Positions 1-20,894 of a stretch of DNA of 64,000 nt are shown in pieces. Made by a program: the position numbers and the translations under genes. The stretch is taken from the NCBI RefSeq assembly GCF_044324875.1, contig NZ_CP172187.1; one strand, given 5' to 3'. Positions within the stretch are counted from its first letter, which is position 1; every line of letters starts with the position of its first letter. Below the pieces are notes generated by a model that saw only the letters and a list, made by a program, of their open reading frames with translations, did not search any database and had not been told where the DNA came from. The DNA comes from Escherichia coli (GTDB taxonomy: Bacteria > Pseudomonadota > Gammaproteobacteria > Enterobacterales > Enterobacteriaceae).

Positions 1-993
1 TAAGGCTCTGCATGCGGCGGCAATAATGTCCCGGCTGTCCTGTGTGGGCAATGGAAGCTTTTCCACAGCGGCATTGCTGTAACAGGGTTCTTTTACTGCA
101 AAGGGGGATGTCCGTACAAATGTCGTCACCTGCCGGCAATACTGACGTTCCCCACGTAGTTTCTCTGCGGCCCGCTCTGCATACTGAACAACAGCCTGGT
201 GCATGGCATCTTTGTCTGTGATTCGTTCACCAAAACTGCGACTACAGACAATCTGCTGTTTTGCCGGTGGTGCTTCTTCCAGGGATATGCAGGACTCGCC
301 GTTGAGTTCGCGTACCGTACGCTCAAGAATGACGCTGAAGTTTTTCCGGATGAATGCCGTGTTAGCCTGCGCCAGCTGCAGTGCTGTGTTAATACCCAGC
401 GCATTCAGCTTTTCCGTCAGTCTGCGTCCTACTCCCCAGACCTCACCAACTGGCTGCAGCCCCAGTAGCTTCAAGGTCCGATTACGGTTTTCTGCCGTCA
501 GCGCGACCACTCCGGAAAACTGTGGCCATTGCTTTGTTGCCCACTGTGCACTTTTAGCCAGCGTTTTTGTAGGCGCAATGCCCACCCCCATGGTGAGTCC
601 TGTCCAGCTCTTTACCTGTTCCCTGAGCTGATGACCAAAAACCTCCGGAGAGATGCAATGATTTATCCCCCGCAAATCAATGAACATTTCATCAATTGAG
701 TAGGGCTCAACTGCGGGAGAAAGCGACTCCAGAACAGCCATAACCCGTTGGCTCATGCTGTGGTACAGCGCATAATTGCTGGAAAATACATGTATTTTCT
801 TCTCCAGGCGCATTTGTCTCACCTGAAACCAGGGCTGCCCCATTCTGATGCCAAGGGCTTTTGCCTCCGGGCTGCGCGCGATCACACAGCCATCGTTATT
901 GCTGAGTACGATGACCGGTTCGTTGCGAAGGTCCGGGCGGAAAACTTTTTCACATGAGGCGTAGAAACTGTTGATATCAGCCAGTGCAAACAT
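1..993 (-). CDS. impB: Y-family translesion DNA polymerase subunit (UmuC/MucB/ImpB-like); 5' part only, gene continues past the left edge
   Basis: Minus-strand ATG is the reverse complement of 991-993 and overlaps the impA stop by 1 nt. Hand translation gives MFALADINSFYASCEKVFRPDLRNEPVIVLS, the conserved UmuC-family N-terminus. Absent from the ORF track because there is no in-window stop; frame beyond ~30 codons not checked by hand. Confidence 0.65.
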   Translation of the reverse strand, partial: MFALADINSFYASCEKVFRPDLRNEPVIVLSNNDGCVIARSPEAKALGIRMGQPWFQVRQMRLEKKIHVFSSNYALYHSMSQRVMAVLESLSPAVEPYSIDEMFIDLRGINHCISPEVFGHQLREQVKSWTGLTMGVGIAPTKTLAKSAQWATKQWPQFSGVVALTAENRNRTLKLLGLQPVGEVWGVGRRLTEKLNALGINTALQLAQANTAFIRKNFSVILERTVRELNGESCISLEEAPPAKQQIVCSRSFGERITDKDAMHQAVVQYAERAAEKLRGERQYCRQVTTFVRTSPFAVKEPCYSNAAVEKLPLPTQDSRDIIAAACRAL

Positions 994-1430
994 CAGCGTA
1001 ACTCCCGCGTCCTGTGTATCACGTGAGTGACAACACCAAAAATACAGATGTTTTCCGGATACAGTGTGCGGAACTCCGGGCTGTCTGAAACCGGCTCCAG
1101 TGCCGGGCGTGGGCGCAACAGCAGTCGTTTGACGGTGAACTCACCATCGATCTCAGCGATAACGATGTCCCCGTGTTGTGGTTTTTCGGCCCTGTCCACT
1201 ACCAGCAGATCACCATTCTGCACGCCAGCCTGGTTCATCGATTCACCGCTGGCGCGCAGAAAGAAGGTGGCTGCAGGTCTGCTGATGCAATAGCTGTTCA
1301 GATCCAGTTCCTGCTCAGCATAATCAGTGGCAGGCGAAGGAAAACCGGCCTGGCAACGATCGGCAAACAACGGTCGCACGTAACTGTCATTGCCTGAAGG
1401 GTCAGCCGGACGGTGATAAACGGTACTCAT
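993..1430 (-). CDS. impA: UmuD/MucA/ImpA-like SOS mutagenesis protein (LexA-type self-cleaving S24 peptidase fold)
   Basis: 145-aa ORF with the conserved segment FFLRASGESMNQAGVQNGDLLVVDR and a catalytic-Lys region typical of UmuD/LexA C-domains; sits between impC and impB. Confidence 0.85.
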   Translation of the reverse strand: MSTVYHRPADPSGNDSYVRPLFADRCQAGFPSPATDYAEQELDLNSYCISRPAATFFLRASGESMNQAGVQNGDLLVVDRAEKPQHGDIVIAEIDGEFTVKRLLLRPRPALEPVSDSPEFRTLYPENICIFGVVTHVIHRTRELR

Positions 1431-1675
1431 GCTGCAGGCAGCCAGCTGTCGTCCTGCCAGATTTCTTCCAGCAGAGACAGGATACGTTCTTTATCCTTGT
1501 CGTTGCGGGCTCCTGTGACAGATACAGACGGGGCGCTGCCCTGGTCTATACGCAGCCAGATTTCCGGGTAGTGTGGTTTCAGACGTCGTTCGATTTCATT
1601 CTGTAGCGCCTGAAGTGTGCCTGATTTGAGGTTTTTTGTGCTCTGGCGGTCGAAAAGAATTTCAATGCGGATCAT
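1427..1675 (-). CDS. impC: ImpC-like small protein, first gene of the impCAB operon
   Basis: ORF-track frame 1427..1735; chosen start is the internal ATG (MIRIEILFDRQ...) preceded by AAGGGAG, which leaves the LexA box outside the CDS. 4-nt overlap with impA. Confidence 0.7.
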   Translation of the reverse strand: MIRIEILFDRQSTKNLKSGTLQALQNEIERRLKPHYPEIWLRIDQGSAPSVSVTGARNDKDKERILSLLEEIWQDDSWLPAA

Positions 1676-1698
1676 GTTCTCATCTCCCTTTTCTTTTG

Positions 1699-1714
1699 CT
1701 GTATGTATATACAG
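1699..1714. promoter_or_regulatory. LexA (SOS) operator upstream of impC
   Basis: Perfect palindromic CTGTATGTATATACAG (CTGT-N8-ACAG) 24 nt upstream of the impC start. Confidence 0.65.
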
Positions 1715-1984
1715 TATTCTAATAACTGAATCCACACACAGTCAAATGTCATTATTGTGACTAAAAAACGCTCAATTCTCTGAGGGTGTGGCTGTATGCC
1801 TGCTGTGGACTGCTGTGTCCAGCTTATCCACAGCATTTTGCGCACGGTTCTGTGAATAAAATACCTGGTTACCCAGGCCGTGCCGGCACGTTAACCGGGC
1901 TGCATCCAATGCAAGTGTGTCGCTGTCGCCGGCATCCTCACCAGGTCACTCAGCAGTCAGGGAGAAAAATGGCGGATGAAGTAT

Positions 1985-2340
1985 GACGGAGACGGTCGGG
2001 CAAGTGCCCGTTTCTTTTCCGACAAAGGATGTCGCCGTGCTCCTCTTTTTACTGCGCCGGCTGACGCGGCGCGGCATAAACGCTGCCTGTGGTCAGTGTC
2101 CCGCGTCCGGCGGGCACGGGACGGGCGCTTTTACCGCTCCCGGCTGGCGTCGGTGACAGTGTACGCCAGCCCGTCGCCCTTTTCTGATGAACGCCCTTCA
2201 AGCCGCTTTCGCGGCATAGCCTTGCCGTCAAAAAGACGACGGCTGCGGTATTCCACGGTCGGCCTGACCCGTTACCGGACGCGGTGAACAGCCCACAGGC
2301 AGCGGGGAACGGGCACCACAGGGGGGCCCTCCCGGTGCTC
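1985..2340. repeat. Leading-region repeat family A, copy 1 (~350 bp, GC-rich, hairpin-rich); candidate Frpo/ssi-like single-strand promoter
   Basis: Near-identical to 3290-3650 (shown by near-identical translations of ORFs 1976..2287 and 3248..3592 and by direct reading); ends immediately upstream of the ATG at 2343. Confidence 0.8.
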
Positions 2341-2342
2341 CT

Positions 2343-3284
2343 GTGAGGAGAATTCCCATGCCAAACTGGTGCTCAAATCGTATGTATTTTTCTGGTGAAC
2401 CAGCACAGATCGCTGAGATTAAACGACTGGCCAGCGGTGCAGTCACACCGCTTTATCGCCGCGCCACAGATGAAGGTATTCAGCTGTTTCTGGCCGGTAG
2501 TGCCGGACTTCTGCAGACCACTGAAGATGTGCGGTTTGAACCATGCCCCGGACTGACGGCTGCCGGACGTGGTGTTGTATCGCCGGAGAATATCGCGTTC
2601 ACCCGCTGGCTGACACACCTGCAGAACGGTGTGCTACTGGATGAAAAAAACTGCCTGATGCTGCATGAACTCTGGCTGCAGAGTGGTACTGGCCAGCGTC
2701 GCTGGGAAGGATTACCGGATGAGGTCAGGGAAAGCATCACCGTGCATTTCACCGCCAAAAGAGGTAACTGGTGTGGCTTCTGGAGTAACGAGGATGTATC
2801 GGTGTGGTGGAACCGTCTGTGTGACAATGTACTGCCGGAAAAAACCATGCCGTTTGACCTGCTGACGGTTCTGCCCACCCGCCTGGATGTTGAAGTGAAT
2901 GGCTTTAACGGTGGTGTTCTGAACGGTGTTCCTTCTGCGTATCACTGGTATACGGAACAGTATGGCGTGAAGTGGCCTGTGGGGTATGAGGTGAATATCA
3001 GCAGTCAGGGAGACAACTTCATTCAGGTTGATTTCGACACGCCGTGGTGTCAGCCGGAAAGCGACGTTATTGCAGAATTAAGCCGCCGTTTCAGTTGCAC
3101 ACTGGAGCACTGGTATGCCGAGCAGGGCTGCAATTTCTGTGGCTGGCAGCGATATGAGCGTGGAGAGCTTGTTGATGTCCTGTGGGGGGAATTGGAATGG
3201 TCTTCCCCGACAGATGACGATGAGCTGCCGGAAGTCACCGGACCTGCGTGGATTGTCGACAAGGTGGCGCATTACGGTGGATGA
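2343..3284 (+). CDS. Hypothetical leading-region protein (313 aa; Cys/Trp-rich), function unknown
   Basis: Long ORF immediately downstream of repeat A copy 1; alternative start ATG at 2358 (MPNWCS...). No motif I can assign. Confidence 0.55.
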   Translation: MRRIPMPNWCSNRMYFSGEPAQIAEIKRLASGAVTPLYRRATDEGIQLFLAGSAGLLQTTEDVRFEPCPGLTAAGRGVVSPENIAFTRWLTHLQNGVLLDEKNCLMLHELWLQSGTGQRRWEGLPDEVRESITVHFTAKRGNWCGFWSNEDVSVWWNRLCDNVLPEKTMPFDLLTVLPTRLDVEVNGFNGGVLNGVPSAYHWYTEQYGVKWPVGYEVNISSQGDNFIQVDFDTPWCQPESDVIAELSRRFSCTLEHWYAEQGCNFCGWQRYERGELVDVLWGELEWSSPTDDDELPEVTGPAWIVDKVAHYGG

Positions 3285-3289
3285 ATTCT

Positions 3290-3650
3290 GACGGAGACGG
3301 GCGGGCAACCGCCCGTTTCTTTTCCGACAAAGGATGTCGCCGTGCTCCTCTTTTTACTGCGCCGGCTGACGCGGCGCGGCATAAACGCTGCCTGTGGTCA
3401 GTGTCCCGCGTCCGGCGGGCACGGGACGGGCGCTTTTACCGCTCCCGGCTGGCACCGGTGACAGTGTACGCCAGCCCGTCGCCCTTTTCTGATGAACGCC
3501 CTTCAAGCCGCTTTCGCGGCATAGCCTTGCCGTCAAAAAGACGACGGCTGCGGTATTCCACGGTCGGCCTGACCCGTTACCGGACGCGGTGAACAGCCCA
3601 CAGGCAGCGGGGAACGGGCACCACAGGGGTGCCCTCCCGGTGCCTTCTGT
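3290..3650. repeat. Leading-region repeat family A, copy 2
   Basis: Direct repeat of 1985-2340 with a few substitutions; ends at the RBS (AAGGAGG) of the methyltransferase gene at 3668. Confidence 0.8.
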
Positions 3651-3667
3651 AAGAGAAGGAGGCTTTT

Positions 3668-4351
3668 ATGTCCCGTTTTATCCTGGGTGACTGCGTGCGA
3701 GTTATGGCCACGTTTCCGGACAATGCTGTCGATTTCATCCTCACCGACCCGCCGTATCTCGTCGGTTTCCGTGACCGTTCCGGGCGCACCATTGCCGGTG
3801 ACGTTAACGATGACTGGTTGCAACCTGCCAGCAATGAGATGTACCGCGTACTCAAAAAAGACGCTCTGTTGGTCAGCTTCTACGGCTGGAACCGTATTGA
3901 CCGCTTTATGGCGGCCTGGAAACGCGCCGGATTCAGCGTGGCAGGGCACCTCGTGTTCACCAAAAACTACACATCCAAATCTGCGTATGTCGCGTACCGC
4001 CACGAATGCGCCTACATCCTGGCAAAAGGCCGTCCACGTCTGCCACAAAACCCGCTGCCGGACGTGCTGGGCTGGAAATATTCGGGCAATCGTCATCACC
4101 CGACGGAAAAGCCTGTTACCAGCCTGCAACCGCTGATTGAGAGCTTCACACACCCGAACGCAATTGTGCTGGACCCGTTTGCAGGCAGCGGCTCAACCTG
4201 CGTTGCCGCCCTCCAGTCCGGACGCCGGTATATCGGTATCGAGCTGCTTGAGCAGTATCACCGTGCCGGACAGCAACGACTGGCTGCCGTTCAACGGGCC
4301 ATGCAGCAGGGGGCCGCGAATGATGACTGGTTTATGCCGGAGGCTGCGTAA
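3668..4351 (+). CDS. Orphan DNA methyltransferase, beta-class (N6-adenine/N4-cytosine type; DPPY motif precedes the SAM-binding FAGSGST motif)
   Basis: 227-aa ORF with TDPPYLVGF near the N-terminus and DPFAGSGSTCVAA near the C-terminus; no adjacent restriction endonuclease gene. Confidence 0.85.
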   Translation: MSRFILGDCVRVMATFPDNAVDFILTDPPYLVGFRDRSGRTIAGDVNDDWLQPASNEMYRVLKKDALLVSFYGWNRIDRFMAAWKRAGFSVAGHLVFTKNYTSKSAYVAYRHECAYILAKGRPRLPQNPLPDVLGWKYSGNRHHPTEKPVTSLQPLIESFTHPNAIVLDPFAGSGSTCVAALQSGRRYIGIELLEQYHRAGQQRLAAVQRAMQQGAANDDWFMPEAA

Positions 4352-4573
4352 ATGAACTATGCCGGACACGAAAAACTTCGCGCCGAAGTGGCGGAGGTGG
4401 CCAACACCATGTGTGACCTTCGGGCCAGGCTGAACGATATGGAGCATCGCTGTCGTTTTGATTCCGATGTGCTTGTTGAACGCCTGACACGCCAGACGCT
4501 GTATCGCGCCAATCGCCTGTTTATGGAGGCGTATACCGAAATTCTTGAACTGGATGCGTGCTTCAAAGATTAA
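4352..4573 (+). CDS. Hypothetical small protein (73 aa)
   Basis: ATG abuts the methyltransferase stop; same strand as all leading-region genes. Confidence 0.5.
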   Translation: MNYAGHEKLRAEVAEVANTMCDLRARLNDMEHRCRFDSDVLVERLTRQTLYRANRLFMEAYTEILELDACFKD

Positions 4574-4585
4574 GGGGGAGACGAA

Positions 4586-5020
4586 ATGTACGGAACATGC
4601 GAAACACTCTGCCGGGAGCTGGCAGCGCAGTATCCGGGAGACACGCCGCTGATGCTGGTTGTCTGGTCCCCGGAAGAGATTCAGGCACTGGCTGACGGTA
4701 TGGAAATTTCTCTGACCGATCATGAAATCAGGACCGTCCTGTCGCGCCTGGAGGACATCCCGGAAGACCAGCGGAGTGAATCCGGTATTTCTTCTGCCGC
4801 TGCGATGGAGATTATCAGCAACGTGAGCGAAAACCGCCAGGTGACCGTCCCTGCTGAACTGCTGGCGTCCCTGATTCAGACCGCCGAACAGGCACTGTGG
4901 AAACGTGAATGGGCCGCCCGTGATAACGGCCTTGCCGTCCCGGAATGTGTTACCCGCCGTCAGGCAGTGATTAATCAGGCCCGCACCCTGCTGAAAAACA
5001 ACACACACGAAAACAACTGA
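4586..5020 (+). CDS. Hypothetical acidic protein (144 aa); paralog of ORF 6497..6919
   Basis: Shares the R(Q/H)VTVPA motif and a similar N-terminal pattern with ORF 6497..6919; RBS GGGGGAG upstream. Confidence 0.6.
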   Translation: MYGTCETLCRELAAQYPGDTPLMLVVWSPEEIQALADGMEISLTDHEIRTVLSRLEDIPEDQRSESGISSAAAMEIISNVSENRQVTVPAELLASLIQTAEQALWKREWAARDNGLAVPECVTRRQAVINQARTLLKNNTHENN

Positions 5021-5134
5021 TGTTATCGCCGCCTGCCCTCTGCCATTCAGAGACTGACCGGAACCGGGGCGGAACTGGTACTGTCCGGCAGTCAGTGGCA
5101 GTCGCTGCCGGTACTTCCGGCAGACGGAACGCAG

Positions 5135-5608
5135 GTGTCTTTCCCGTATGCCGGAGAATGGCTGACCGAAGACGAAATCAGGGCTGTTCTTGATGCGGTG
5201 CACGATGCGGTACGAAGCATCTGTTACCAGGTGGCAGAAGATACGCGGCGTATCCGTGCGGCGCTGACCACCACCGGTCAGACGTTGCTGACCCGCCAGA
5301 CGCGCCGCTTTCGCCTGGTCGTGAAGGAAAGCGATCATCCCTGCTGGCTCGATGAAGATGACGAAAACCTGCCCGTAGTGCTCGATGTCATCGTGAACCG
5401 GGGCGCACGTTTTTCGGCAGTGGAAATGTACCTGGTCAGCGATTGTATTGAGCATATCCTGTCCAGTGGGCTGGCCTGCGATGTGCTGCGTATACCGGAT
5501 GAACCGCCCCGCCGCTGGTTTGACCGTGGTGTTCTGCGGGAGGTGGTCCGGGAAGCCCGGACCGAAATCCGCAGCATGGCGGATGCCCTGGCAAAAATCC
5601 GTAAATGA
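5135..5608 (+). CDS. Hypothetical protein (157 aa)
   Basis: Co-oriented ORF; no recognisable motif. Confidence 0.5.
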
Positions 5609-5749
5609 TGACACTGGCGGGGTAAATCCCCGCCTTTTTCCTGCCGGTCCCCGGACAGAGCACAAAGGAAGTCGCCGCCGGCTCCGCTTTACCCGGCCAT
5701 GCGGGGCATGGCCTTGTGGATTTTCAGTTATGTGGCCTCAGCGTCGTGT

Positions 5750-5990
5750 GCGGGCTGTGCCGTGCCTCCATCGTAGCCGGGCTTCTGCGGGCGGGTTGCA
5801 AGGTAAGGTGAACCGCTGCGGTCACCCGGTCCCTCCTTCCCGTCTGCCGTGATTTTCCGGTCGTTCACCCGCTCAGATTTCGCGGTCTCACCCTCCAACT
5901 CCCGCCAGCCGTGTGCGTCAGGCTGCGGCTTCCCTTGCGCCCTTGCAACCCTGCAGGCCCGGCAAAGATGGAGGCACGGCACCGCCCGGT
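5750..5990. other. Long-range inverted repeat in a GC-rich 415-bp intergenic region upstream of klcA; candidate single-strand hairpin promoter/ssi element
   Basis: GCCGTGCCTCCATC (about 5763) pairs with GATGGAGGCACGGC (about 5968) about 190 nt apart, with further local palindromes; no ORF of note. Confidence 0.4.
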
Positions 5991-6024
5991 GTCGCGGAAT
6001 ATGTGAACAACGGAGGAAAACATC

Positions 6025-6450
6025 ATGCAATATGCGAAACCTGTCACTCTGAATGTTGAAGAGTGCGACCGTCTGTTTTTTCTGCCTTACCTGTTTGGCC
6101 AGGATTTTCTGTATGCCGAGGCATCTGTGTACGCGCTGGCGAAAAAAATGATGCCGGAATATGACGGCGGATTCTGGCACTTCATCCGCCTGCCGGACGG
6201 TGGCGGTTACATGATGCCGGATGGCGACCGTTTTCATCTGGTCAACGGTGAAAACTGGTTTGACCGTACGGTCAGCGCCGATGCCGCAGGCATCATTGTG
6301 ACTTCCCTTGTGATTAACCGTCAGTTGTGGCTGTACCACGACAGCGGTGATGCAGGACTGACTCACCTGTACAGGATGCGCGATGCGCAGTTGTGGAGCC
6401 ACATCGAATTTCACCCCGAATGCAATGCGATTTACGCGGCACTGGACTGA
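6025..6450 (+). CDS. klcA: KlcA/ArdB-family anti-restriction protein
   Basis: 141 aa with family hallmarks FLPYLFG...[16 protein letters not shown]...[11 protein letters not shown], matching my recollection of KlcA/YfjX-type proteins. Confidence 0.8.
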
Positions 6451-6496
6451 TTAACGGACGGGGCGGCAATGCCGCCCCTGTAAAGGAGACGAGAAC

Positions 6497-6919
6497 ATGT
6501 ACTGTACTGTTAAAGAAATTATCCGCGAAGTGCTGGATACAGACGTGCCGGACAGTGAATGCGTTTTTGCCGTGGTGCTGACCCGTGGGGATGTGCGCCA
6601 CATAGCTCAGGACTGGAGTCTGGCAGACGATGAGCTGGAAACCGTCATGCAGCGGCTGGACGATGCCTTTGAGCATGGTGCGGATGTCAGCGTTGTTCAC
6701 GACGTTGTTCGTGAACTGATGGAAGAAAAGCGCGCCAGCCGTCATGTGACAGTCCCGGCGATGATGCTGGAAAAAGTGATGGCGCTGGCAGGCAGTGAAA
6801 TGAAGCGCCTGTATGCCGTCGGAAGTGAGAACGGGGGCGACGGTGACGCATTCGTCAGGGAGGAACGCGAAGCAATGGACGTTGTGTTACAGGCGCTGGA
6901 CGGGGAGACGATGTCATGA
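6497..6919 (+). CDS. Hypothetical acidic protein (140 aa); paralog of ORF 4586..5020
   Basis: Shares the RHVTVPA motif and N-terminal pattern with ORF 4586..5020; RBS AAGGAG upstream. Confidence 0.6.
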   Translation: MYCTVKEIIREVLDTDVPDSECVFAVVLTRGDVRHIAQDWSLADDELETVMQRLDDAFEHGADVSVVHDVVRELMEEKRASRHVTVPAMMLEKVMALAGSEMKRLYAVGSENGGDGDAFVREEREAMDVVLQALDGETMS

Positions 6920-7107
6920 ATATCAGCACAGAAACCCGCGAAATTCTGCGTAATTACAGGGCCGTGATTAATGCGCGGCGTCGTGAAATGGGGCAGAAAC
7001 CGCTCACCACCGCGCAGATTGTTGATGAAATCTGCGATTTTGTGGCGAATCAGCAGGCGGTTTTCCTGGGCGGTCACTACATCTTACAGGGCAGCAGAAA
7101 CAGGTGA
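6916..7107 (+). CDS. Hypothetical small protein (63 aa)
   Basis: ATG overlaps the preceding stop (ATGA), suggesting translational coupling. Confidence 0.4.
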   Translation: MNISTETREILRNYRAVINARRREMGQKPLTTAQIVDEICDFVANQQAVFLGGHYILQGSRNR

Positions 7108-7295
7108 TACAGGGGCAGGCGGTGGAGGCCGCCTGTCAGCCCGCGCGAAAACCCCTGGCAGGCTGACGCCTGCCGGAAGGGAAGCGGGCCACGCTGGCGC
7201 GTCGCCCGTTACCCTTCCCGTCTGTGATGTGTCTGACTCAGGAGTGTTTCTTTCTTATGTTGCGGAACTGTTCCTGATGTTGTTGTTGTTCCTTT

Positions 7296-7895
7296 ATCTG
7301 CTGCTCTGATTCTGACTACTGCAGTGTTGTTCTGTCTGCCGGGCGCACCTTCGGCTCCCGGCTGCCTGGCGGCATCCGGTCGTCAGGCCCGACTCCGACA
7401 GGCAGCTGCTGGCGCACCTGCCAGTCTCCGCCGAACCCGCTGGCGCGGCTTCGGGCTGCCGCTACGGTCCGATGCGTGAAAACCCCGGGCTTGCAGCGAC
7501 CGTTCTGGTCGCGCCGCCTCTGTCGCGCCGTGGCCTGCGCTCCAGGCATCCCGGCAAAAAGACGCCGGGATGTAAGGCGCAACGCCGTTTCGCAAACCGC
7601 GCTTCACGTCGTTGCTGCGGGTCCCTGCTCATTGCCTGCCGGGTGCCACACACCCGTATGAGTCCCTGTCGCCGGGGGCATAGACAGCCACAACCTGCCG
7701 CACTGACTGTCCAGGGTAAATGAACAGCCCACAAAATTTTTTACCCAAAACCCGGTAAAAAATTTTGCGTTCTGCCCAGGACAGGTGCGTCAGGCCGTGG
7801 CAGTGATGCCCCTTGCGGCGAAGGTTCTCAAACGGGTGAAGTTCATACCACAGGGAATACAGCAGCAGGTTCCCGCGAAACGTCAAAACCGCGGC
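7296..7895. repeat. Leading-region repeat family B, copy 1 (~600 bp, GC-rich); candidate Frpo/ssi-like single-strand promoter
   Basis: Shares ...CTGATTCTGACTACTGCAGTGTTGTTCTGTCTGCCGGGCGCACCTTCGGCTCCCGGCTGCC... through ...CGCGGCTCCCGAAACTCAAC with copies at 10651-11280 and 18720-19340. Confidence 0.8.
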
Positions 7896-8148
7896 TCCCG
7901 AAACTCAACGGGTGATGTTCTTTAAAAATCAGGATTTATTTCAGGCTCCGGCAATACGCATTTATGTGTTCTGTCAGTCATCCGGCTGGCAGGTAATGAG
8001 AACGCAGGAACAGAAGGAGGAAAACACCGGAGAACGTCAGACGCAGATATGAAAAAAGCAGGCCGGGGAGGACCTGCTTAATCCACACCGCAAAAACTGT
8101 TCGAGCAGTTTCTGCGGTTCCATTCAACAGTCATAAGGAGTTTCATTT

Positions 8149-8379: not shown

Positions 8380-8430
8380 TGAGGTGAGCCGCCCCGCGAG
8401 GGGCGGCAACAGATGGAAGGAGAACATTTT

Positions 8431-9792
8431 ATGACATTAGCAGCAATCACCATGACCGCCCCGGAAGCCGCCAACCCTGTGCAGATGTACCGCGCGACCT
8501 ACTCACCGGATGACAACAAACTGCGCCTGTATGCCGCGTCACGTCTTGACCCGGAGACGTATAAAAAAGTGCATGATGCCGGTTTTCGCTGGGCACCCAA
8601 ACAGGCGCTGTTTGTCGCGCCAGCCTGGACACCGGGCCGGGAAGACGTGCTCCTCTCACTTGCCGGAGAGATTGAGGATGAAGACAGCACGCTCGCTGAA
8701 CGTCAGGAAGCACGGGCGGAGCGGTTTACCGGATACAGCGGAAAGCGGGCCAGTGAATCCGCACAGGCACTTGATGAAGTGGAAAGACTGGCCGCGATGA
8801 TCCCGCCCGGTCAGCCCATTCTTGTGGGGCATCACAGCGAACGCCGCGCCCGTCGTGATGCGCAGCGTATTGAAAACGGCATGAAACGTGCCGTGATGCT
8901 CTTTGAGCGTGCGGAATACTGGGAGGAGCGGGCGCGGTCGGCACTGCTTCACGCGAAGTATAAAGAACGCCCGGACGTTCGCTGGCGTCGTATCAAAAAA
9001 ATCGAAGCGGATTTGCGCAAGGCTGAAAAGACCATCGCGCAGTCGCAGAAATATCTGACGATGTGGCGGGCTGAATCGCTGGATCTGAATATGGCAAAAC
9101 TCATCAGCAGTCATGACCATATCAGCGCCTGTTTCCCGCTGGACAGGTATCCGCGCCCGGCAGAAAAAAGCCAGTATGAAGGAAGTCGATCGTTATGGTC
9201 GGCCCTGGATGATGACATCATCACCACGGAGCAGGCCCGCGAAATTGCGATCCGCTGTCATGAACGGCAGATTCAGCATCAACAACGCTGGGTTAACCAC
9301 TATCATAACCGCCTGATCTATGAGCGTGCCATGCTGGACGAAAGCGGCGGCGTGGTTACCCGGACACAGGATTTTGAGCCGGGCGGACAGGTTTTCAGCC
9401 GGGGCGAGTGGCTGACCATCATCCGCGTGAACAAAAGCAACGGGGCGGTGAGTTCAGTCACAACGCCGAATTACAGTTTTCTCGGGTACAGCGGCACGAT
9501 GAAAGTGACACCCGATCGCATCACGGACTACAAAGCACCATCGGCAGAAGAGGCTGCCGTCGCCAGTCAGGCCGCGAAGCGTCCGCCGGTAGTCAACTAT
9601 CCGGGGGAAGGTTTCCGGGAAATGACAAAGGCGCAGTGGGCCGCCCTGCCCCGGGACTGTAAGGCCGTGCGCAGTGTGGCAGAGACAGAAGACCACGGGG
9701 CATACCGCTACCGCCGCACAATGGACAATAATTTCCGCCTGGTGAATGTGTATATCACTGACATGAAAATCACGGAAATCCCACAGAAATAA
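8431..9792 (+). CDS. Conserved hypothetical leading-region protein (~453 aa)
   Basis: ORF-track frame 8413..9792; ATG at 8431 follows AAGGAGAA. Charged and coiled-coil-like; no catalytic motif recognised. Confidence 0.55.
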   Translation: MTLAAITMTAPEAANPVQMYRATYSPDDNKLRLYAASRLDPETYKKVHDAGFRWAPKQALFVAPAWTPGREDVLLSLAGEIEDEDSTLAERQEARAERFTGYSGKRASESAQALDEVERLAAMIPPGQPILVGHHSERRARRDAQRIENGMKRAVMLFERAEYWEERARSALLHAKYKERPDVRWRRIKKIEADLRKAEKTIAQSQKYLTMWRAESLDLNMAKLISSHDHISACFPLDRYPRPAEKSQYEGSRSLWSALDDDIITTEQAREIAIRCHERQIQHQQRWVNHYHNRLIYERAMLDESGGVVTRTQDFEPGGQVFSRGEWLTIIRVNKSNGAVSSVTTPNYSFLGYSGTMKVTPDRITDYKAPSAEEAAVASQAAKRPPVVNYPGEGFREMTKAQWAALPRDCKAVRSVAETEDHGAYRYRRTMDNNFRLVNVYITDMKITEIPQK

Positions 9793-9838: not shown

Positions 9839-10402
9839 ATGCACAGTCAGTTAAGAGAACGTATCCGGCTGATGCGCGCAAGGCTGGATAACGCCGCGCC
9901 GGTTGCTGAAATCCGGGCTGAATCTCAGCTTTTTGTGACTCCTGCCCCGGTCTGTGATCGCCTGGTGACGCTGGCGGAAATCAGCAACCGTGATCACATT
10001 CTGGAACCCTCTGCCGGCACCGGGGCCATACTGCTGGCGATTCGGGATACCGCGCCGGAGGCCATGTGTGATGCGGTGGAGATTAACAGCGGGCTGGTCC
10101 GGTATCTGCGGGAAAATTTTAACGGTGTCAGGGTACAGTGTGGCGACTTCATGGAATGGCAGCCGGTGCAGTATTACAGCCGGATCATTATGAATCCGCC
10201 GTTCAGTCACGGGCAGGATATCCGGCATATCCTGCGGGCTTTTTCCCTGTTGCGTCCGGGGGGCGTTCTGGTTGCCGTCTGTCTCAACGGGCCGCGCCAG
10301 CAGGAGAAGCTGTTACCGTTTTCTGACGTCCGCGAGGAGCTGCCGCGCGGCACGTTTGCTTATACCGATGTCCCGACGATGATTATTCGTTTGCGTGCCT
10401 GA
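9839..10402 (+). CDS. Small SAM-dependent methyltransferase (187 aa); probable second orphan N6-adenine DNA methyltransferase
   Basis: SAM-binding-like LEPSAGTGAILLA followed by IMNPPF (NPPF-type motif IV); too short for a separate target-recognition domain, so substrate is uncertain. Confidence 0.65.
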   Translation: MHSQLRERIRLMRARLDNAAPVAEIRAESQLFVTPAPVCDRLVTLAEISNRDHILEPSAGTGAILLAIRDTAPEAMCDAVEINSGLVRYLRENFNGVRVQCGDFMEWQPVQYYSRIIMNPPFSHGQDIRHILRAFSLLRPGGVLVAVCLNGPRQQEKLLPFSDVREELPRGTFAYTDVPTMIIRLRA

Positions 10403-10650: not shown

Positions 10651-11280
10651 TTTTTCCTGCTGCTCTGATTCTGACTACTGCAGTGTTGTTCTGTCTGCCG
10701 GGCGCACCTTCGGCTCCCGGCTGCCTGGCGGCATCCGGTCGTCAGGCCCGACTCCGACAGGCAGCTGCTGGCGCACCTGCCAGTCTCCGCCGAACCCGCT
10801 GGCGCGGTTTCGGGCTGCCGCTACGGTCCGATGCGTGAAAACCCGGCTTGCAGCGACCGTTCCGGTCGCGCCGCCCCTGTCGCGCCGTGACCTGCGCTCC
10901 AGGCATCCCGGCAAAAAGACGCCGGGATGTAAGGCGCAACGCCGTTTCGCAAACCGCGCTTCACGTCGTTGCGGCGGGTCCCTGCCCGTTGTTGTGTCCG
11001 GTGCCATTCACCTGTTTAAGCCCCTGTCGCCGGGGGCTGATACAGCCACAACCTGCCGCACTGACTGTCCAGGGTAAATGAACAGCCCACAAAATTTTTT
11101 ACCCAAAACCCGGTAAAAAATTTTGCGTTCTGCCCAGGACAGGTGCGTCAGGCCGTGGCAGTGATGCCCCATGCGGCGAAGGTTCTCAAACAGGTGATGG
11201 TGAATACCGGAGGGAACAAAGAGCAGGTCCCCGCAAAACGTCAAAACCGCGGCTCCCGAAACTCAACAGATGATGGGGGC
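10651..11280. repeat. Leading-region repeat family B, copy 2, directly upstream of ssb
   Basis: Direct sequence identity with copies 1 and 3; the 3' end ...CGAAACTCAACAGATGATGGGGGCTGAAAAC is shared exactly with copy 3. Confidence 0.8.
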
Positions 11281-11308: not shown

Positions 11309-11347
11309 ATGGCAGTTCGTGGCATTAACAAGGTCATTCTTGTCGGT
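11309..11347 (+). CDS. ssb: Plasmid single-stranded DNA-binding protein, exon 1 (codons 1-13, MAVRGINKVILVG)
   Basis: ATG with RBS AAGGAG; the 13 codons are the canonical SSB N-terminus; the reading frame is interrupted by GTGCG at 11348. Confidence 0.8.
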
Positions 11348-11960
11348 GTGCGCCGTTGAAGCGCGGTGTTTTATGGAGTGTTGCCTGAAAAGCAACATGG
11401 CTTAGTGGTATAGCCATTGCATACTGTGGTTAGCCTTGCTTGGTAACAGGCTCGGAGATCCTGAAAAGGAGAGGTGAACATAGCATCCACAGAAAAGGGT
11501 GGTGAATATGGAAATCGTTATAAGTATCACCATTCAATGCAAGATGTATATGGATAAACTGGGTTTGTTGAAGTCGAGATCTATGTGGGAAACAGGAAAC
11601 CAATAACGCAGAACGATTGAAGCGTTATTCCCGTACTAGCACAAGAAATCCGTCCGACGTTGATTGTGACCACTCTAACGGGCCAGCTATTGATGAAATA
11701 GTTAAACGATCGAAAGACATCCTAAGTACATCGCATCTCCACACCGTGAAACTACGGGACTACCTAAACTGGATTTATACCCAGCATGGTAGCGGAGTCT
11801 CCATAGTACTCAAGGTCGGCCTGTAATGGGTTCCGGCAGTCCGCATTATACGGAAGCAGCAAAGGTATAAATCAACCGGAAGGAAGATGAAAGCCTCACA
11901 GTGCTGCGGGGAAGGGAGACAGTTGTTAGATACATCAATCTCTAAGAGGAGGGTTAGCCA

Positions 11961-13862
11961 ATGCTGCCTGATGAACTTGAGAAAAGATTAGATGGAATTG
12001 AGGATGCTTCAAAAAAAGGGTATCCAGTACGTAATCTATACAAAATTGCGTGTGAGCCCGGACTGTGGCTGCAAGCCTACGTGAATATACGGGCCAATGC
12101 AGGTGCACTGACTCAAGGTGTATCAACAGATACCATTGATGGCTTTTCTATCGAAAGAGCAGAGAAGCTGGCAAAAACATTGCGGAGTAGAGAATACGTA
12201 GCGAAACCTGTACGCAGAGTTCAGATCCCAAAAAAGGACGGAAAAACCAGACCGCTGGGGATTCCAGGTGGAGACGATAAACTGGCGCAAGAAGTAGCAA
12301 GAATTATTCTGGAAAGGGTTTATGAACCAGTATTCTCTGAACACTCTCATGGATTCAGACCAAAACGTTCGTGTGAAACTGCGCTCAGATCTATTCGTCC
12401 AGTCTGGAACGGAGTTAAATGGATCGTGGATGTTGATATCAAAGGTTTCTTTGACAATATCCCCCACAAACTATTGCTGAATACACTGGCAGAGAAAATT
12501 AAGGATAAGAATTTCCTGAAATTAATCGAACAGTGGCTGAAGGCAGGATATGTGGACAATTGGAAATACCATCGCTCATATTCTGGCACGCCACAAGGTG
12601 GGATAATTTCTCCCTTACTGGCAAATATATACCTCGACAAACTGGACCGTTTTGTAGAACAGAATTTAATTCCTGCATATACAAGCGGTACAAAACGAAG
12701 AGCGAATCCAGATATGAACAGGCTGGCCCATAAGATTCATAAACTACGAAAGAAAGTAGACGGTATGGCAACTGATTCTGAATCAGAAAAAGAAGCCATA
12801 AAGAAAGAAATTGAACGACTGCTTGAAGAAAAACGTTCTATACCATCTCAGGTCATGAACGATCCAAACTTCAGGCGTATGTACTATGTTCGATATGCTG
12901 ATGACTTCGTAATCGGTGTCATCGGCTCGAAGAAAGATGCTGAACATATATCAAGACAGGTCAGAAACTTTATTACTACTTCACTGGGATTGGAAGTTAA
13001 TGAAGCAAAGACCAGGATCCGCCATATCTCAGAAGGAGTTAATTTTTTAGGCTATGAAATCAGACAGGCAGATGCAAAGAAATTGCTGAAGCAGAAAATG
13101 CAAGGGCGGCACGCTCTCCGGAGATCCACCACAGGAATTGTGCAGCTCTTCGTTCCTGACAATATAGCCGCTAAATTTTGTCACCAAAAGAAATATGGCT
13201 GTTATGAGAATGTGAAGGCTGTACATCGTTCAAGTCTACAAAATCTCAGTGAAGCTGAAATTGTTCTGACTTTCAACGCGGAAATGCGCGGATTGGCGAA
13301 CTACTACAGTCTGGCGCTGGACATGAAATATAAATTATCAAAATTATATTTCATATGGCAAATAAGCCTTTTTAAGACCCTGGCGAATAAACGACGTAGT
13401 TCAGTGAATAAAGTCGCCAAATCGCTACGGCAAAATAATGGAGATCTGGCTATTACCGTTCAGGCCAAAAATGGATCCCGAAAGATTGAGGTTTTCAAAC
13501 TCAAACATGTCAATCGCAACCGAACAACGATTGTCGATACGGAACCGAGAACCGCACATATCACAACCCGCACAACAGAGATCATGCGTCGATTAGGGGC
13601 AAGGATCTGCGAGTATTGTGCGAAGACTGGGCGCTGCGAAGTACATCATGTCAGAAAGCTAAAAGACCTGAAGAAAGGTCGTAAGGCCGGATATAAACCC
13701 AGCTTGTGGCAACTAATGATGATCGCACGCCGCCGGAAAACGATGATTTTGTGCGCAAGTTGCCACGACAAGTTACATAGCGGAAAACTACCCGATTTGA
13801 GACAGGAAAAGGGAAGAATACTCCTGCAACCACCTGTCTCAAGCGGGGATTCTGCTAAATGA
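11961..13862 (+). CDS. Group II intron-encoded protein: reverse transcriptase, maturase (X) and HNH endonuclease domains
   Basis: 633 aa with RT motifs (LGIPGGDDKLAQE, SHGFRPKRSCETAL, FFDNIPH, GTPQGGIISPLLANIYL, YVRYADDFVIGV) and a C-terminal Cys/His HNH-like cluster (CEYCAKTGRCEVHHV...CASCHDKLH). Confidence 0.9.
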   Translation: MLPDELEKRLDGIEDASKKGYPVRNLYKIACEPGLWLQAYVNIRANAGALTQGVSTDTIDGFSIERAEKLAKTLRSREYVAKPVRRVQIPKKDGKTRPLGIPGGDDKLAQEVARIILERVYEPVFSEHSHGFRPKRSCETALRSIRPVWNGVKWIVDVDIKGFFDNIPHKLLLNTLAEKIKDKNFLKLIEQWLKAGYVDNWKYHRSYSGTPQGGIISPLLANIYLDKLDRFVEQNLIPAYTSGTKRRANPDMNRLAHKIHKLRKKVDGMATDSESEKEAIKKEIERLLEEKRSIPSQVMNDPNFRRMYYVRYADDFVIGVIGSKKDAEHISRQVRNFITTSLGLEVNEAKTRIRHISEGVNFLGYEIRQADAKKLLKQKMQGRHALRRSTTGIVQLFVPDNIAAKFCHQKKYGCYENVKAVHRSSLQNLSEAEIVLTFNAEMRGLANYYSLALDMKYKLSKLYFIWQISLFKTLANKRRSSVNKVAKSLRQNNGDLAITVQAKNGSRKIEVFKLKHVNRNRTTIVDTEPRTAHITTRTTEIMRRLGARICEYCAKTGRCEVHHVRKLKDLKKGRKAGYKPSLWQLMMIARRRKTMILCASCHDKLHSGKLPDLRQEKGRILLQPPVSSGDSAK

Positions 13863-13888
13863 GTTTATCCCCAATAAGCTAGCAATGG

Positions 13889-13926
13889 AGAGCCGTATGC
13901 ACTGAAAGGTGCACGTACGGTTCGGA
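13889..13926 (+). ncRNA. Group II intron domain V (catalytic hairpin)
   Basis: Matches the conserved domain V consensus as I recall it (GAGCCGUAUGC...GCACGUACGGUUC), about 80 nt from the 3' splice site. Confidence 0.7.
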
Positions 13927-14008
13927 GGGGGGGTAACGGTGATCTAACTCAAGATAAGCAGGACATATTCGCCATTTATCTTGAAAGACCACACGTACCC
14001 TACCCTAC

Positions 14009-14497
14009 CGTCTGGGAAAAGATCCGGAAGTCCGTTACATCCCAAACGGGGGCGCAGTGGCAAACCTGCAGGTGGCCACGTCAGAAAGCTGGCGCGACAA
14101 ACAGACGGGGGAGATACGGGAGCAGACAGAATGGCATCGCGTGGTGCTGTTCGGCAAGCTCGCGGAAGTGGCTGGTGAGTATCTGCGCAAGGGCGCGCAG
14201 GTCTACATCGAAGGTCAGCTTCGCACCCGTAGCTGGGAGGATAACGGTATCACCCGTTACGTCACCGAAATTCTTGTTAAGACCACGGGCACCATGCAGA
14301 TGCTGGGACGTGCCGCAGGTACTCAGACTCAGCCGGAAGAGGCGCAACAGTTCAGCGGTCAGCCTCAGCCGGAATCACAGCCGGAACCGAAAAAAGGAGG
14401 CGCGAAAACGAAAGGCCGTGGACGTAAGGCCGCGCAGCCGGAGCCTCAGCAGCCGTCTGAACCCGCGTATGACTTCGATGACGACATTCCGTTCTAA
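14009..14497 (+). CDS. ssb: Plasmid single-stranded DNA-binding protein, exon 2
   Basis: In frame with ORF 14057..14497 ([19 protein letters not shown]...DDDIPF, acidic SSB tail); upstream in-frame codons [17 protein letters not shown] continue the SSB OB-fold. Confidence 0.8.
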
Positions 14498-14849: not shown

Positions 14850-16807
14850 ATGTCAGTTACAGAGTCTAAGACAAAAACGGAGCGTAAATCCAGCCGTAAA
14901 CCTGCAAAAACGCAGGAAACTGCACTGTCTGCCCTGCTGGCGCAGACGGAGGAAGTGAGCGTGCCGCTGGATTCACTGATTAAATCACCGCTGAATGTGC
15001 GCACGGTGCCGTATTCTGCGGAGTCCGTCAGTGAACTGGCTGATTCCATTAAGGGAGTCGGCCTGCTGCAGAATCTGGTTGTTCATGCCCTGCCAGGTGA
15101 CCGTTACGGTGTCGCCGCAGGTGGTCGCCGACTGGCAGCACTCAACATGCTGGCAGAGCGTGACATCATTCAGGCTGACTGGCCTGTCCGCGTGAAAATT
15201 ATTCCGCAGGAGCTGGCGACGGCTGCATCGATGACCGAGAACGGTCATCGTCGGGATATGCACCCTGCCGAACAGATTGCCGGATTCCGCGCAATGGCGC
15301 AGGAAGGCAAAACACCTGCGCAAATCGGTGATTTGCTGGGCTATTCACCCCGCCATGTCCAGCGAATGCTGAAACTGGCTGACCTTGCGCCTGTCATCCT
15401 CGATGCGCTGGCAGAAGACCGCATCACCACCGAACACTGTCAGGCGCTGGCGCTGGAGAACGACACCGCGCGTCAGGTGCAGGTGTTTGAAGCCGCTGCC
15501 AGTCAGGATGGGGTGGAAAACCGGATGTGCGGGTTATCCGCAACCTGATTACGGAAAGTGAAGTGGCGGTGAAGGACAACACTAAATTTCGCTTTGTGGG
15601 GGCTGATGCTTTCTCGCCTGACGAACTGCGCACCGATTTGTTCAGCGATGACGGGGACGGTTATGTCGACCGCGTGGCGCTCGATGCCGCCCTGCTGGAA
15701 AAACTCCAGGTTGTTGCAGAGTCCCTTCGGGAAGCAGAAGGCTGGGAATGGTGCGCCGGGCGCATGGAGCCAGTCGGTGAGTGCCGTGAGGATGCCGGAA
15801 CATACCGCTGTCTGCCGGAGCCGGAAGCGGTGCTGACGGAGGCGGAAGAAGAACGCCTGAACGAACTGATGACGCGTTACGACGCGCTGGAAAACCAGTG
15901 TGAGGAATCCGACCTGCTGGAAGCAGAAATGAAGCTGATGCGCTGCATGGCGAAGGTCAGAGCGTGGACGCCGGAGATACGTGCCGGAAGCGGTGTGGTG
16001 GTGTCCTGGCGTTATGGCAACGTATGTGTCCAGCGTGGTGTGCAGTTGCGCAGTGAAGATGACGCGACTGACGACGCTGACCGCACGGAACAGGTGCAGG
16101 AGAAAGCGTCAGTGGAGGAAATCAGTCTGCCACTGCTGACGAAAATGTCTTCCGAACGCACGCTGGCAGTCCAGGCGGCACTGATGCAGCAACCGGACAA
16201 ATCCCTGACACTGCTGGCATGGACGCTCTGCCTGAATGTGTTTGGCAGCGGAGCGTACAGTAAACCAGCACAAATCAGCCTGGAATGTAAACATTATTCG
16301 CTGACCAGCGATGCGCCGTCAGGGAAGGAAGGTGCCGCATTCATGGCGCTGATGGCAGAAAAAGCCCGTCTTGCGGCCCTGTTACCGGAGGGATGGTCAC
16401 GGGACATGACGACATTCCTTTCACTCAGTCAGGAGGTGCTGTTATCCCTGCTCAGTTTCTGCACCGCGTGCAGCATCCACGGCGTTCAGACCCGCGAGTG
16501 TGGTCACACGTCACGCAGCCCGCTGGACACGCTGGAGAGCGCCATCGGTTTTCACATGCGCGACTGGTGGCAGCCGACAAAAGCAAACTTCTTCGGACAC
16601 CTGAAAAAGCCGCAGATTATCGCAGCCCTGAATGAGGCAGGACTGTCCGGTGCCGCACGGGACGCGGAGAAGATGAAGAAAGGCGATGCGGCTGAACATG
16701 CAGAGTTCCATATGAAAGACAACCGCTGGGTGCCTGGCTGGATGTGTGCACCACGTCCACAGACGGATACCACTGAACGCACTGATAACCTGGCTGATGC
16801 CGCCTGA
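14850..16807 (+). CDS. ParB-like nuclease-domain protein, apparently split by a frameshift into 14850..15548 and 15527..16807
   Basis: N-terminal part has ParB/Srx-like motifs (LQNLVVHALPGDRYGVAAGGRRLAALN, HTH-like region); the second ORF continues in another frame with a 22-nt overlap. Combined length (~650 aa) is that of intact homologues as I recall them. Confidence 0.6.
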
Positions 16808-16858: not shown

Positions 16859-17296
16859 GTGATGAAAACTGAACTGACCCTGAATGTCCTGCAGACCATG
16901 AACGCACAGGAATATGAAGATATCCGTGCTGCGGGAAGCGATATGCGCCGTAATCTCACTCACGAGGTGATGCGTAAAGTGGACGCACCGGCTAACTGGA
17001 TGATGAATGGCGAGTATGGCAGTGAGTTCGGGGGCTTTTTCCCCGTCCAGGTTCGTTTCACGCCAGCCCACGAACGTTTTCACCTGGCGTTATGTTCACC
17101 GGGCGATGTCTCTCAGGTCTGGGTGCTGGTTCTGGTGAATGCCGGTGGTGAGCCGTTTGCGGTGGTTCAGGTGCAGCGGCGGTTTGCACCGGAAGCTGTC
17201 AGCCATTCACTGGCACTGGCGGCGTCACTGGATGCGCAGGGGTACAGCGTTAACGACATCATTCATATCCTGATGGCGGAAGGAGGTCAGGCATGA
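16859..17296 (+). CDS. psiB: PsiB, plasmid SOS-inhibition protein
   Basis: 145 aa matching F-plasmid PsiB nearly end to end from memory ([25 protein letters not shown]...). Confidence 0.9.
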
Positions 17297-19340: not shown

Positions 19341-19370
19341 GGCTGAAAACCAGAGAGAGGAGAAAGCTGG

Positions 19371-19658: not shown

Positions 19659-19776
19659 CCGGATGTGATGAATATCCCTCCTGATTGTTGCAATCTTGTT
19701 AATGGAGATCGGGAGAGATGATATTAAGCGGAAAAATTTTTTATTAAATTTATTCTTTCATAAAGGAGTAGCTGTT

Positions 19777-20641: not shown

Positions 20642-20894
20642 TATTATCATTTTTCGGCATTGCTGTGTCGTCTGATATACCTCAATTTCATCGACCGGCT
20701 TTCCGGTTGTCTGTAAATATTGTGCCCGCGAAAAATGGTCTGGCAGGAGGCTGCGCAGTTACCGGGTATATATAAGATGGGTTCCCGCTTCGCGGGGCTT
20801 CGGCCAGTCAGTATTGTCACTCATATGATATTTTTGTGTGTGGCCTTCCATGCCGCTTTTGCGGCATAACCGGTATCTGACAATGTCTGTAAGA

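Follow-up and report, generated by a model that had tools for sequence, protein, structure and literature searches.

A LexA-controlled impCAB operon at the distal end of the leading region of an F-type plasmid, transcribed away from that region

Introduction

The purpose of plasmid umu-like operons, and the reason why they lie at the end of the leading region, is the question behind the locus described here, and the benefit of these operons is still described as unclear (PMC11541004). Within the 64-kb stretch of DNA that was analysed, hereafter the window, an impCAB mutagenesis operon meets the far end of a leading region that encodes PsiB, an inhibitor of the SOS response. An SOS-inducible polymerase and an SOS suppressor are therefore found on one plasmid, which is an apparent paradox. 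An earlier, sequence-only reading of the window had pointed to this pairing and implied that the mutator would fire when the plasmid enters a recipient as single-stranded DNA. The narrower question is whether the genes, control sites and strand polarity at this junction are compatible with such firing.

Results

Open reading frames and profile searches over the 64-kb window place three genes on the minus strand at its left end, in the order impC, impA and impB, with overlapping stop and start codons. The first, impC (1675-1427), encodes a DinI-like product of 82 aa and overlaps the start of impA by 4 nt. ImpC matched Pfam DinI at 66 bits (cut-off 24) and the DinI structure 1GHH (E 1.6e-6), and it scored under the cut-off of the NCBIfam DinI equivalog (42.7 vs 111). 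A DinI-like first cistron upstream of impA is the mark of the three-gene imp subtype, to which this operon belongs. The second gene, impA (1430-993), encodes a predicted UmuD-like self-cleaving subunit of 145 aa and overlaps the start of impB by 1 nt; its product matched Pfam Peptidase_S24 and the NCBIfam UmuD subfamily (143 bits vs 110). Alignment of ImpA to UmuD (8gmt, 1umu) brought out an Ala28-Gly29 cleavage site, Ser64 in the motif GESM and Lys101 in FTVKR, corresponding to C24-G25, S60 and K97 of UmuD, respectively.

The third gene, impB (993-1), is predicted to encode a UmuC-like Y-family polymerase, of which the first 331 of about 424 codons are present before the window edge. The frame is open over all 331 codons, and approximately 93 C-terminal codons lie beyond the edge. 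The translated part carries the Pfam domains IMS, IMS_HHH and IMS_C, scores 624 bits against the NCBIfam UmuC subfamily (cut-off 431), and is identical at 329 of 331 residues to the N-terminus of the 424-aa ImpB of pCP55-141k; the catalytic residues D6 and D101-E102 align with those of DinB. As in UmuC, the region of the beta-clamp motif, which reads QPGLF in pCP55-141k, would be located in the last ~93 codons of ImpB, outside the window. We assume from the relatives that the polymerase is intact, with its C-terminal region for partner and clamp binding located past the window edge. Judged by these profile and residue matches, the locus appears to be a UmuDC-type SOS mutagenesis operon, the plasmid counterpart of umuDC together with a DinI-like gene. 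For other imp operons, RecA-dependent UV protection and damage-induced mutagenesis are mentioned, as reports cited by others, in PMC10286972 and PMC12211044.

The operon is preceded by a predicted sigma-70 promoter (1745-1716, minus strand), composed of a -35 hexamer TTGACT (1745-1740), an 18-nt spacer and a -10 hexamer TAGAAT (1721-1716), which together match the consensus at 10 of 12 positions. This was the only promoter-like site in 1400-2400, and its -10 hexamer abuts or overlaps the main LexA operator (1697-1716, minus strand; TACTGTATATACATACAGCA). The operator agrees with the consensus TACTG(TA)5CAGTA at 18 of 20 positions, and it is the sole site within three mismatches of that consensus in 64 kb, a match not seen in any of 100 shuffles. 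It had been described beforehand as a perfect SOS box, which holds for the CTGT-N8-ACAG core only, given the two mismatches in the full 20 positions. An identical 20-mer lies at the impCAB operon of pTF2, where its heterology index is 1.60 (PMC12211044). A second, weak LexA-like box with a CTG...CAG core (1724-1743; AACTGAATCCACACACAGTC) overlaps the -35 hexamer, and for the identical sequence in pTF2 the heterology index is 13.49 (PMC12211044). In a lexA-defective strain, the products of a near-identical operon were up, ImpC 21-fold, ImpA 9-fold and ImpB 2-fold (PMC12211044). Promoter and operator are 99% conserved across four relatives of the IncF, IncK and IncI types. The three genes and their operator thus lie on the minus strand where the sequence-only reading had placed a LexA-controlled impCAB operon, at 1-1735, although that interval is too short, leaving out the -35 hexamer and part of the weak box.

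Three further candidates for LexA-dependent control were considered and rejected. As for LexA control of the leading genes through other sites, no further operator within three mismatches of the consensus exists in the 64 kb, and the second CTGT-N8-ACAG match in the window (50335) lies inside an IS21-family transposase gene. The looser pattern CTGNNTN7CAG occurred 28 times against 8.8 in shuffles, an excess which is due to CTG/CAG trinucleotide bias, as 25.8 sites are expected from trinucleotide frequencies and the spacing is not preferred. SOS induction of the neighbouring DUF1281 gene, from a divergent promoter on the plus strand under the same LexA box, was discarded because 1400-2400 holds no promoter-like site besides that of imp.

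Where the imp module ends and the leading-region module begins can be told by comparison with F plasmids that lack imp. Megablast homology to the imp-less pEK499 group starts at 1786, and the interval 1786-1970 is the leftmost stretch common to imp-less F plasmids; in pEK499 it is sopB, not imp, that lies upstream of the matching stretch. The imp operon therefore directly adjoins the distal end of the leading region, as had been proposed from the sequence. To the right of this stretch, and upstream of the DUF1281 gene, lies a structured, GC-rich element, here named repeat A (copy 1, 1971-2352), which is 97% identical to a copy at 3276-3657 and which RefSeq annotates in relatives as a 103-aa hypothetical protein. 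Folded as single-stranded DNA it gave a z-score of -4.8, with both strands folding equally well; repeat A showed no BLAST similarity to the published Frpo/ssi set and contained no consensus hexamers.

The other end of the leading region is given by the nick site of oriT (21504-21488, minus strand), in which GTAGTGTGT and GGTGCTTT stand on either side of the nick, with two mismatches to the F nick sequence; we take this variant to be of the R100/R1 type. The window belongs to a plasmid of the F type, and its nick site, of the R100 type, lies between the SLT/orf169 gene and traM (21828-22211), the same position as in pEK499. The minus strand, which carries the nick site, is therefore the one transferred, with its 5' end at 21495 and running leftwards. 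From the nick site leftwards to the imp promoter the leading region spans about 19.75 kb. It adjoins oriT on the side away from tra, and its genes point towards oriT, with the transferred strand as their template, as is expected of an F-type leading region. All of the leading genes, including ssb, psiB and psiA, are on the plus strand, opposite to imp.

The most distal leading gene encodes a DUF1281-family product (2358-3284, plus strand; Pfam DUF1281 and DUF1281_C) and is followed by the gene of an orphan DNA methyltransferase (3668-4351, plus strand; Pfam N6_N4_Mtase). Nearer to oriT lie the SOS inhibitor gene psiB (16862-17296, plus strand; Pfam PsiB, 203 bits) and psiA (17293-18012, plus strand; Pfam PsiA, 134 bits). 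The presence of psiB in the leading region, noted earlier from the letters of the window, is confirmed by the Pfam match and by the NCBIfam PsiB equivalog NF010255, which covers residues 1-144 of 144 at 274 bits vs 100. Upstream of ssb we found a homologue of F ssiD/Frpo, a putative single-strand promoter (10930-11279, minus strand; 87% identical to F ssiD), and the 651-nt region there folds as a long hairpin (z -10.7). Further ssiD-like copies lie at 18993-19342 and 7573-7906, every copy having the polarity of the transferred strand. In all, the Frpo/ssi homologues comprise three ssiD-like elements (80-87% identical), one ssiE (98%) and one Frpo'4-like element (79%), all on the minus strand. 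Two lesions were also observed in the window: a 1-nt deletion that splits a parB-like leading gene, and an IS21-family insertion between traT and traD.

The junction is widespread. Coverage of 80% or more of the junction query was found in at least 1,707 PLSDB records, and 1,249 of the 5,426 complete E. coli genomes reach that coverage for window positions 1-4000. The best matches in PLSDB and among complete E. coli RefSeq genomes were 99.1% and 98.9% identical, respectively, and neither set held an exact record. The order parM-stability, impBAC, leading region also occurs in IncK2/Z, IncI-gamma/K1 and IncF records, and the adjacency of imp and leading region is a conserved backbone arrangement in I-complex and F-type plasmids. 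Positions 1-6000 are 99-100% identical to an IncK2/Z plasmid, except for a more divergent patch at 3501-4000, and the similarity turns F-type at about 6.5-7 kb. NZ_CP070073.1 has a tra region 99% identical to that of the window and lacks imp. Through recombination inside the leading region, imp and the distal leading region pass as an intact block between I-complex and F-type backbones.

Discussion

The locus is very probably an ordinary impCAB operon that borders an F-type leading region at its distal end, transcribed away from it, silent early in transfer and restrained by LexA and PsiB. In an established plasmid, host LexA would occupy the strong box next to the -10 hexamer, covering the predicted transcription start, and the weak second box over the -35 hexamer would act with the strong box to hold the operon off. 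Upon DNA damage, RecA filaments would stimulate the self-cleavage of LexA and imp would be transcribed. ImpA would then be cut at Ala28-Gly29 to give ImpA', and ImpA'2-ImpB would form a Pol V-type translesion polymerase conferring UV protection and mutagenesis, with the DinI-like ImpC tempering the co-protease activity of RecA.

Conjugation would proceed differently. For imp, the transferred strand is sense and not template, therefore imp cannot be read from the incoming single strand; its expression needs the complementary strand to be made, and hence duplex DNA, where host LexA binds. We thus expect imp, about 19.75 kb from the nick site, to be silent while the DNA is single-stranded, when the leading genes including psiB would be read from the incoming strand through the Frpo/ssi hairpin promoters. 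The established mode of action of PsiB is the binding of free RecA. With RecA bound by PsiB, LexA would stay intact and ImpA uncleaved as the imp promoter turns duplex, and from this binding we expect PsiB to prevent, in new transconjugants, both the induction of imp and the processing of ImpA. PsiB is expressed from single-stranded DNA, reaches its peak about 5 min past duplex conversion and is no longer produced after 25-35 min; vegetative cells lack it (PMC9849209). The SOS suppressor and the SOS-inducible polymerase would accordingly be active at different times, so they do not conflict and the apparent paradox is resolved. That one plasmid carries both a mutator and a suppressor of SOS stands; that the mutator fires upon single-stranded entry is not supported, as imp has the wrong polarity for it.

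Spelled out, that idea is a mutator burst coupled to transfer, in which entry induces SOS, imp is derepressed once it is duplex, and a brief hypermutable phase follows because damping by PsiB is only partial. The co-occurrence of imp and psiB on one plasmid fits such a burst, PsiB may act poorly on the divergent RecA of foreign hosts, and there is precedent, at least for the concept as put forward in PMC4151985, for plasmid error-prone polymerases speeding adaptation after horizontal transfer. We nevertheless consider it improbable, since the polarity of imp is wrong for early expression (see also PMC11541004) and since the recipient already contains LexA, a host protein, leaving no repressor-free interval of the kind that occurs with plasmid-encoded repressors. 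Moreover, the PsiB peak coincides with duplex conversion (PMC9849209), overexpression of impCAB is toxic (PMC10286972), and deletion of impA, impB, impC or impCAB does not significantly change conjugation frequency (PMC12211044). A related proposal, that the reverse orientation of imp at the last-entering edge of the leading region is itself a timing device giving a mutator pulse where PsiB fails on the RecA of the recipient, is to us a long shot. If true, new transconjugants would pass through a short, host-dependent mutator pulse, in distant hosts or where the transferred DNA is damaged, and such a pulse would speed the co-adaptation of plasmid and host.

The operon could instead be a decaying passenger, non-functional in this plasmid, for example through a break in impB just beyond the window, such that its position beside the leading region has no present function. 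Decay of this kind occurs in the F-type relative pDEC5B-5, where impB is interrupted by an IS21-like element, and the split parB-like gene and the insertion between traT and traD could be seen in the same light. Yet the impB frame is uninterrupted over the 331 codons in the window, where its product shares 99% identity with a full-length ImpB, and the catalytic residues are preserved, as are the conserved promoter and operator. The reported dN/dS values, 0.11 for impB and about 0.001 for impC and impA, point to purifying selection (PMC10286972), making decay a decidedly improbable account. A role in establishment or anti-defence, with ImpAB completing or repairing the incoming strand or countering host defence as part of the leading-region island, would suit the conserved position at the edge of anti-defence islands (PMC11541004) and a transposon screen that flagged impB as a possible conjugation repressor (PMC10286972), but is extremely improbable because the orientation excludes expression from single-stranded DNA and because neither an impB mutation (PMC10286972) nor the imp deletions mentioned above (PMC12211044) had an effect on conjugation frequency.

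The arrangement is already known: it is a textbook plasmid operon in its usual place, explicitly described in a 2024 paper (PMC11541004). Roughly one in four complete E. coli genomes has it, the window being one more instance, and the sole handle that the window adds is the intact movement of imp and the distal-leading block between I-complex and F-type backbones.

Among known systems, the nearest are the impCAB operons of I-complex plasmids (TP110, pTF2, pMS7163B and pCP55-141k), which share the three-gene order with its overlaps between stop and start codons; pTF2 and the window are identical in the promoter and in both LexA boxes. In these plasmids imp is likewise flanked on one side by the leading region, and parM and stability genes lie on the other side in relatives. 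The backbones differ, as imp in the window sits on an F-type backbone (R100-type nick, F-type tra operon) whereas I-complex imp is found on IncI/MOBP plasmids. Repeat A has an additional copy, between imp and the DUF1281 gene, in the window and in pCP55-141k but not in pC23-89 or pEK499.

The chromosomal umuDC and dinI genes of E. coli are alike in that ImpA aligns with UmuD over the cleavage site and the Ser/Lys dyad, ImpB scores above the cut-off of the UmuC subfamily and ImpC is similar to DinI, and in having a LexA box at the promoter. They differ in the cleavage site, which is Ala-Gly in ImpA and Cys-Gly in UmuD, and in that imp is plasmid-borne, with a DinI-like gene as the first cistron of the operon whose product falls under the DinI equivalog cut-off. 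Other plasmid LexA-controlled homologues of UmuDC that provide UV protection and mutagenesis include mucAB (pKM101), samAB (Salmonella plasmids) and impCAB of the Shigella virulence plasmid, of which muc and sam are not known to have a DinI-like first gene.

On a wider scale, umu-like operons form the end boundary of leading-region anti-defence islands, about 90% of them in the non-transferred orientation (Samuel & Burstein 2024, PMC11541004). The arrangement described in that study is that of the window, with oriT at one end and the umu-like operon at the other, running against the direction of transcription from the transferred strand.

Results

The left edge of the window carries impCAB, a UmuDC-like mutagenesis operon whose three genes, as read from the sequence, all lie on the minus strand of 1-1735. 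impC (1675-1427) encodes 82 aa matching Pfam DinI at 66 bits (cut-off 24) and the DinI structure 1GHH (E 1.6e-6), impA (1430-993) encodes 145 aa with a Peptidase_S24 domain, scoring 143 bits against 110 for the NCBIfam UmuD subfamily, and impB runs from 993 off the window edge with 331 open codons and IMS, IMS_HHH and IMS_C domains, this partial product scoring 624 bits with the NCBIfam UmuC subfamily model (cut-off 431). The cistrons overlap by 4 nt (impC/impA) and 1 nt (impA/impB). Alignment to UmuD places the ImpA cleavage site at Ala28-Gly29, opposite UmuD Cys24-Gly25, with catalytic Ser64 and Lys101 present, and alignment to DinB finds the catalytic Asp6 and Asp101-Glu102 in ImpB. The visible part of impB (codons 1-331) is intact, with ~93 further codons beyond the window, and 329 of its 331 residues are identical to the N-terminus of the 424-aa ImpB of pCP55-141k, an IncK2/Z (I-complex) relative. 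In one F-type relative impB is broken by an IS21-like element, thus impB inactivation does happen in this lineage.

A LexA box (TACTGTATATACATACAGCA, minus strand, 1716-1697) is the sole site in the 64 kb with three or fewer mismatches from TACTG(TA)5CAGTA, and 0 of 100 shuffled sequences gave such a site. The box begins on the final base of the -10 hexamer of a promoter-like match on the minus strand (-35 TTGACT, 1745-1740; 18-nt spacer; -10 TAGAAT, 1721-1716) and reaches downstream across the predicted start region; no other promoter-like site was found in 1400-2400. The sequence-only reading had described a perfect SOS box within an operon spanning 1-1735: the CTGT-N8-ACAG core is indeed exact, but the whole box deviates from the consensus at two positions, and the interval holds the three genes but leaves the -35 hexamer slightly outside. 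Promoter and operator are ~99% conserved in IncF, IncK2/Z and IncI-gamma/K1 relatives. According to a 2025 study, the IncI1 plasmid pTF2 carries the identical 20-mer at impCAB (heterology index 1.60) together with a second, weak LexA box, AACTGAATCCACACACAGTC (index 13.49) (PMC12211044), which corresponds to window 1724-1743 and overlies the -35 hexamer. As a lexA-defective strain shows ImpC raised 21-fold, ImpA 9-fold and ImpB 2-fold (PMC12211044), LexA control is experimentally supported for exactly this operator.

The window is a segment of an F-type plasmid, with traM through traI running on from 21.8 kb. Its nick sequence, GTAGTGTGT/GGTGCTTT (nick at the slash), occupies 21504-21488 of the minus strand and is a two-base variant that we take to be R100-type. 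It follows that the minus strand is the one transferred; it has its 5' end at 21495 and enters leftwards, the imp promoter lying ~19.75 kb from the nick. Between traT and traD there is an IS21-family element (48701-51062) with istA-like (rve and Mu-transposase C domains) and istB-like genes, both on the minus strand, adjoined by a 284-aa ORF (47850-48704); this insertion might alter traD expression and transfer proficiency.

From nick to imp, every leading gene is encoded by the plus strand: DUF932 (19702-20598), psiA (17293-18012), psiB (16862-17296; NCBIfam equivalog, 274 bits against 100), a parB-like gene (14850-16807), ssb (11309-11347 and 14009-14497), a methyltransferase (9839-10402), DUF3560 (8413-9792), an antirestriction-family gene (6025-6450), DUF1380 (4586-5020), a DNA methylase (3668-4351) and DUF1281 (2358-3284). 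The parB-like gene, 652 aa in the imp-less F plasmid pEK499, has a 1-nt deletion relative to it at ~15495, leaving 232-aa and 347-aa ORFs, which reflects either genuine pseudogenization or an error in sequencing. A group II intron (11348-14008; 5' GTGCG, 3' ...CTAC) with an ltrA reverse transcriptase/maturase ORF (11961-13862) interrupts ssb, and joining the two exons regains the full SSB reading frame; making SSB early from incoming DNA would thus require the intron to be spliced out. The same insertion is found in pEK499.

A BLAST comparison of the window with the published set of Frpo/ssi single-strand promoters (supplement of PMC11541004) gave five minus-strand homologues, all with the polarity of the transferred strand: three ssiD-like copies (10930-11279, 18993-19342 and 7573-7906), an ssiE copy (20712-20900) and a Frpo'4-like element (5661-5995; 335 nt, 79% identical to a published candidate single-strand promoter), the last directly upstream of the antirestriction-family gene. 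Folding of the ssiD-like region predicts a very long hairpin (z -10.7). Either side of DUF1281 lie two GC-rich ~380-nt copies of a repeat, repeat A (1971-2352 and 3276-3657; 97% identical), labelled by RefSeq in relatives as 103-aa hypothetical proteins. With a single-strand fold of z -4.8, they rather look like structured non-coding DNA, and they have no similarity to the published Frpo/ssi sequences of that supplement (PMC11541004). In most of the relatives compared, a single copy is present, between DUF1281 and the methylase; pCP55-141k shares with the window the additional copy beside imp. In the interval that separates repeat A from the imp promoter, a 67-nt stretch (1877-1942, minus strand) is 79% identical to the low-certainty candidate 'Frpo*1' (Samuel & Burstein supplement), beside a terminator-like hairpin (1878-1863, minus strand).

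Sequence shared with imp-less F plasmids such as pEK499 begins at 1786, ~40 nt past the imp -35 hexamer, and in pEK499 the same leading-region end adjoins sopAB instead, so it is accurate to say, as had been proposed, that imp directly abuts the distal leading region. Window 1-6000 is 99-100% identical to pCP55-141k, except for 3501-4000 at 92%, and best matches turn to F-type plasmids from ~6.5-7 kb. This mosaic of 1-7200 suggests a crossover within the conserved leading region; judging by these matches, recombination within that shared region has evidently swapped the imp and distal-leading block between backbones of the I-complex and F types.

Discussion

The sequence-only reading placed an SOS-inducible mutator beside an SOS suppressor. 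The adjacency is confirmed, with minor corrections, and the inventory of imp operon and psiB stands, but the implied conflict is removed by strand polarity and timing. Transcripts of imp are identical in sense to the transferred strand, which rules out the incoming strand as their template; imp, as a conventional LexA-repressed operon read from duplex DNA, becomes transcribable only once the complementary strand is made, and for the leading genes the opposite holds. F makes PsiB and its neighbours from single-stranded DNA via Frpo hairpins, with their output peaking ~5 min after duplex conversion, ending after 25-35 min and undetectable in vegetative cells (PMC9849209). PsiB blocks RecA activation. 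Given this activity and the timing of its production, PsiB should keep host LexA intact and ImpA uncleaved when the imp promoter first turns duplex; afterwards PsiB would be lost and imp would act as another member of the host SOS regulon. We infer the link from PsiB to imp, the other steps having their basis in the present analysis or cited work. With suppressor and polymerase apart in time, there is no paradox.

The arrangement of imp and leading region is already published. A transposon study of the I-complex placed impCAB in the leading transfer region, found its genes in >80% of I-complex plasmids and its overexpression toxic, and gave dN/dS values of 0.11 (impB) and ~0.001 (impC, impA); an impB mutant conjugated unchanged (PMC10286972), as did pTF2 without impA, impB, impC or the entire operon (PMC12211044). 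In a search limited to 5,000 records, at least 1,707 PLSDB entries cover ≥80% of a 1.2-kb junction query, and among 5,426 complete E. coli genomes 1,249 reach ≥80% coverage of window 1-4000. In IncK2/Z, IncI-gamma/K1 and IncF records alike, parM is followed by a stability gene, then by impB-impA-impC and the leading region.
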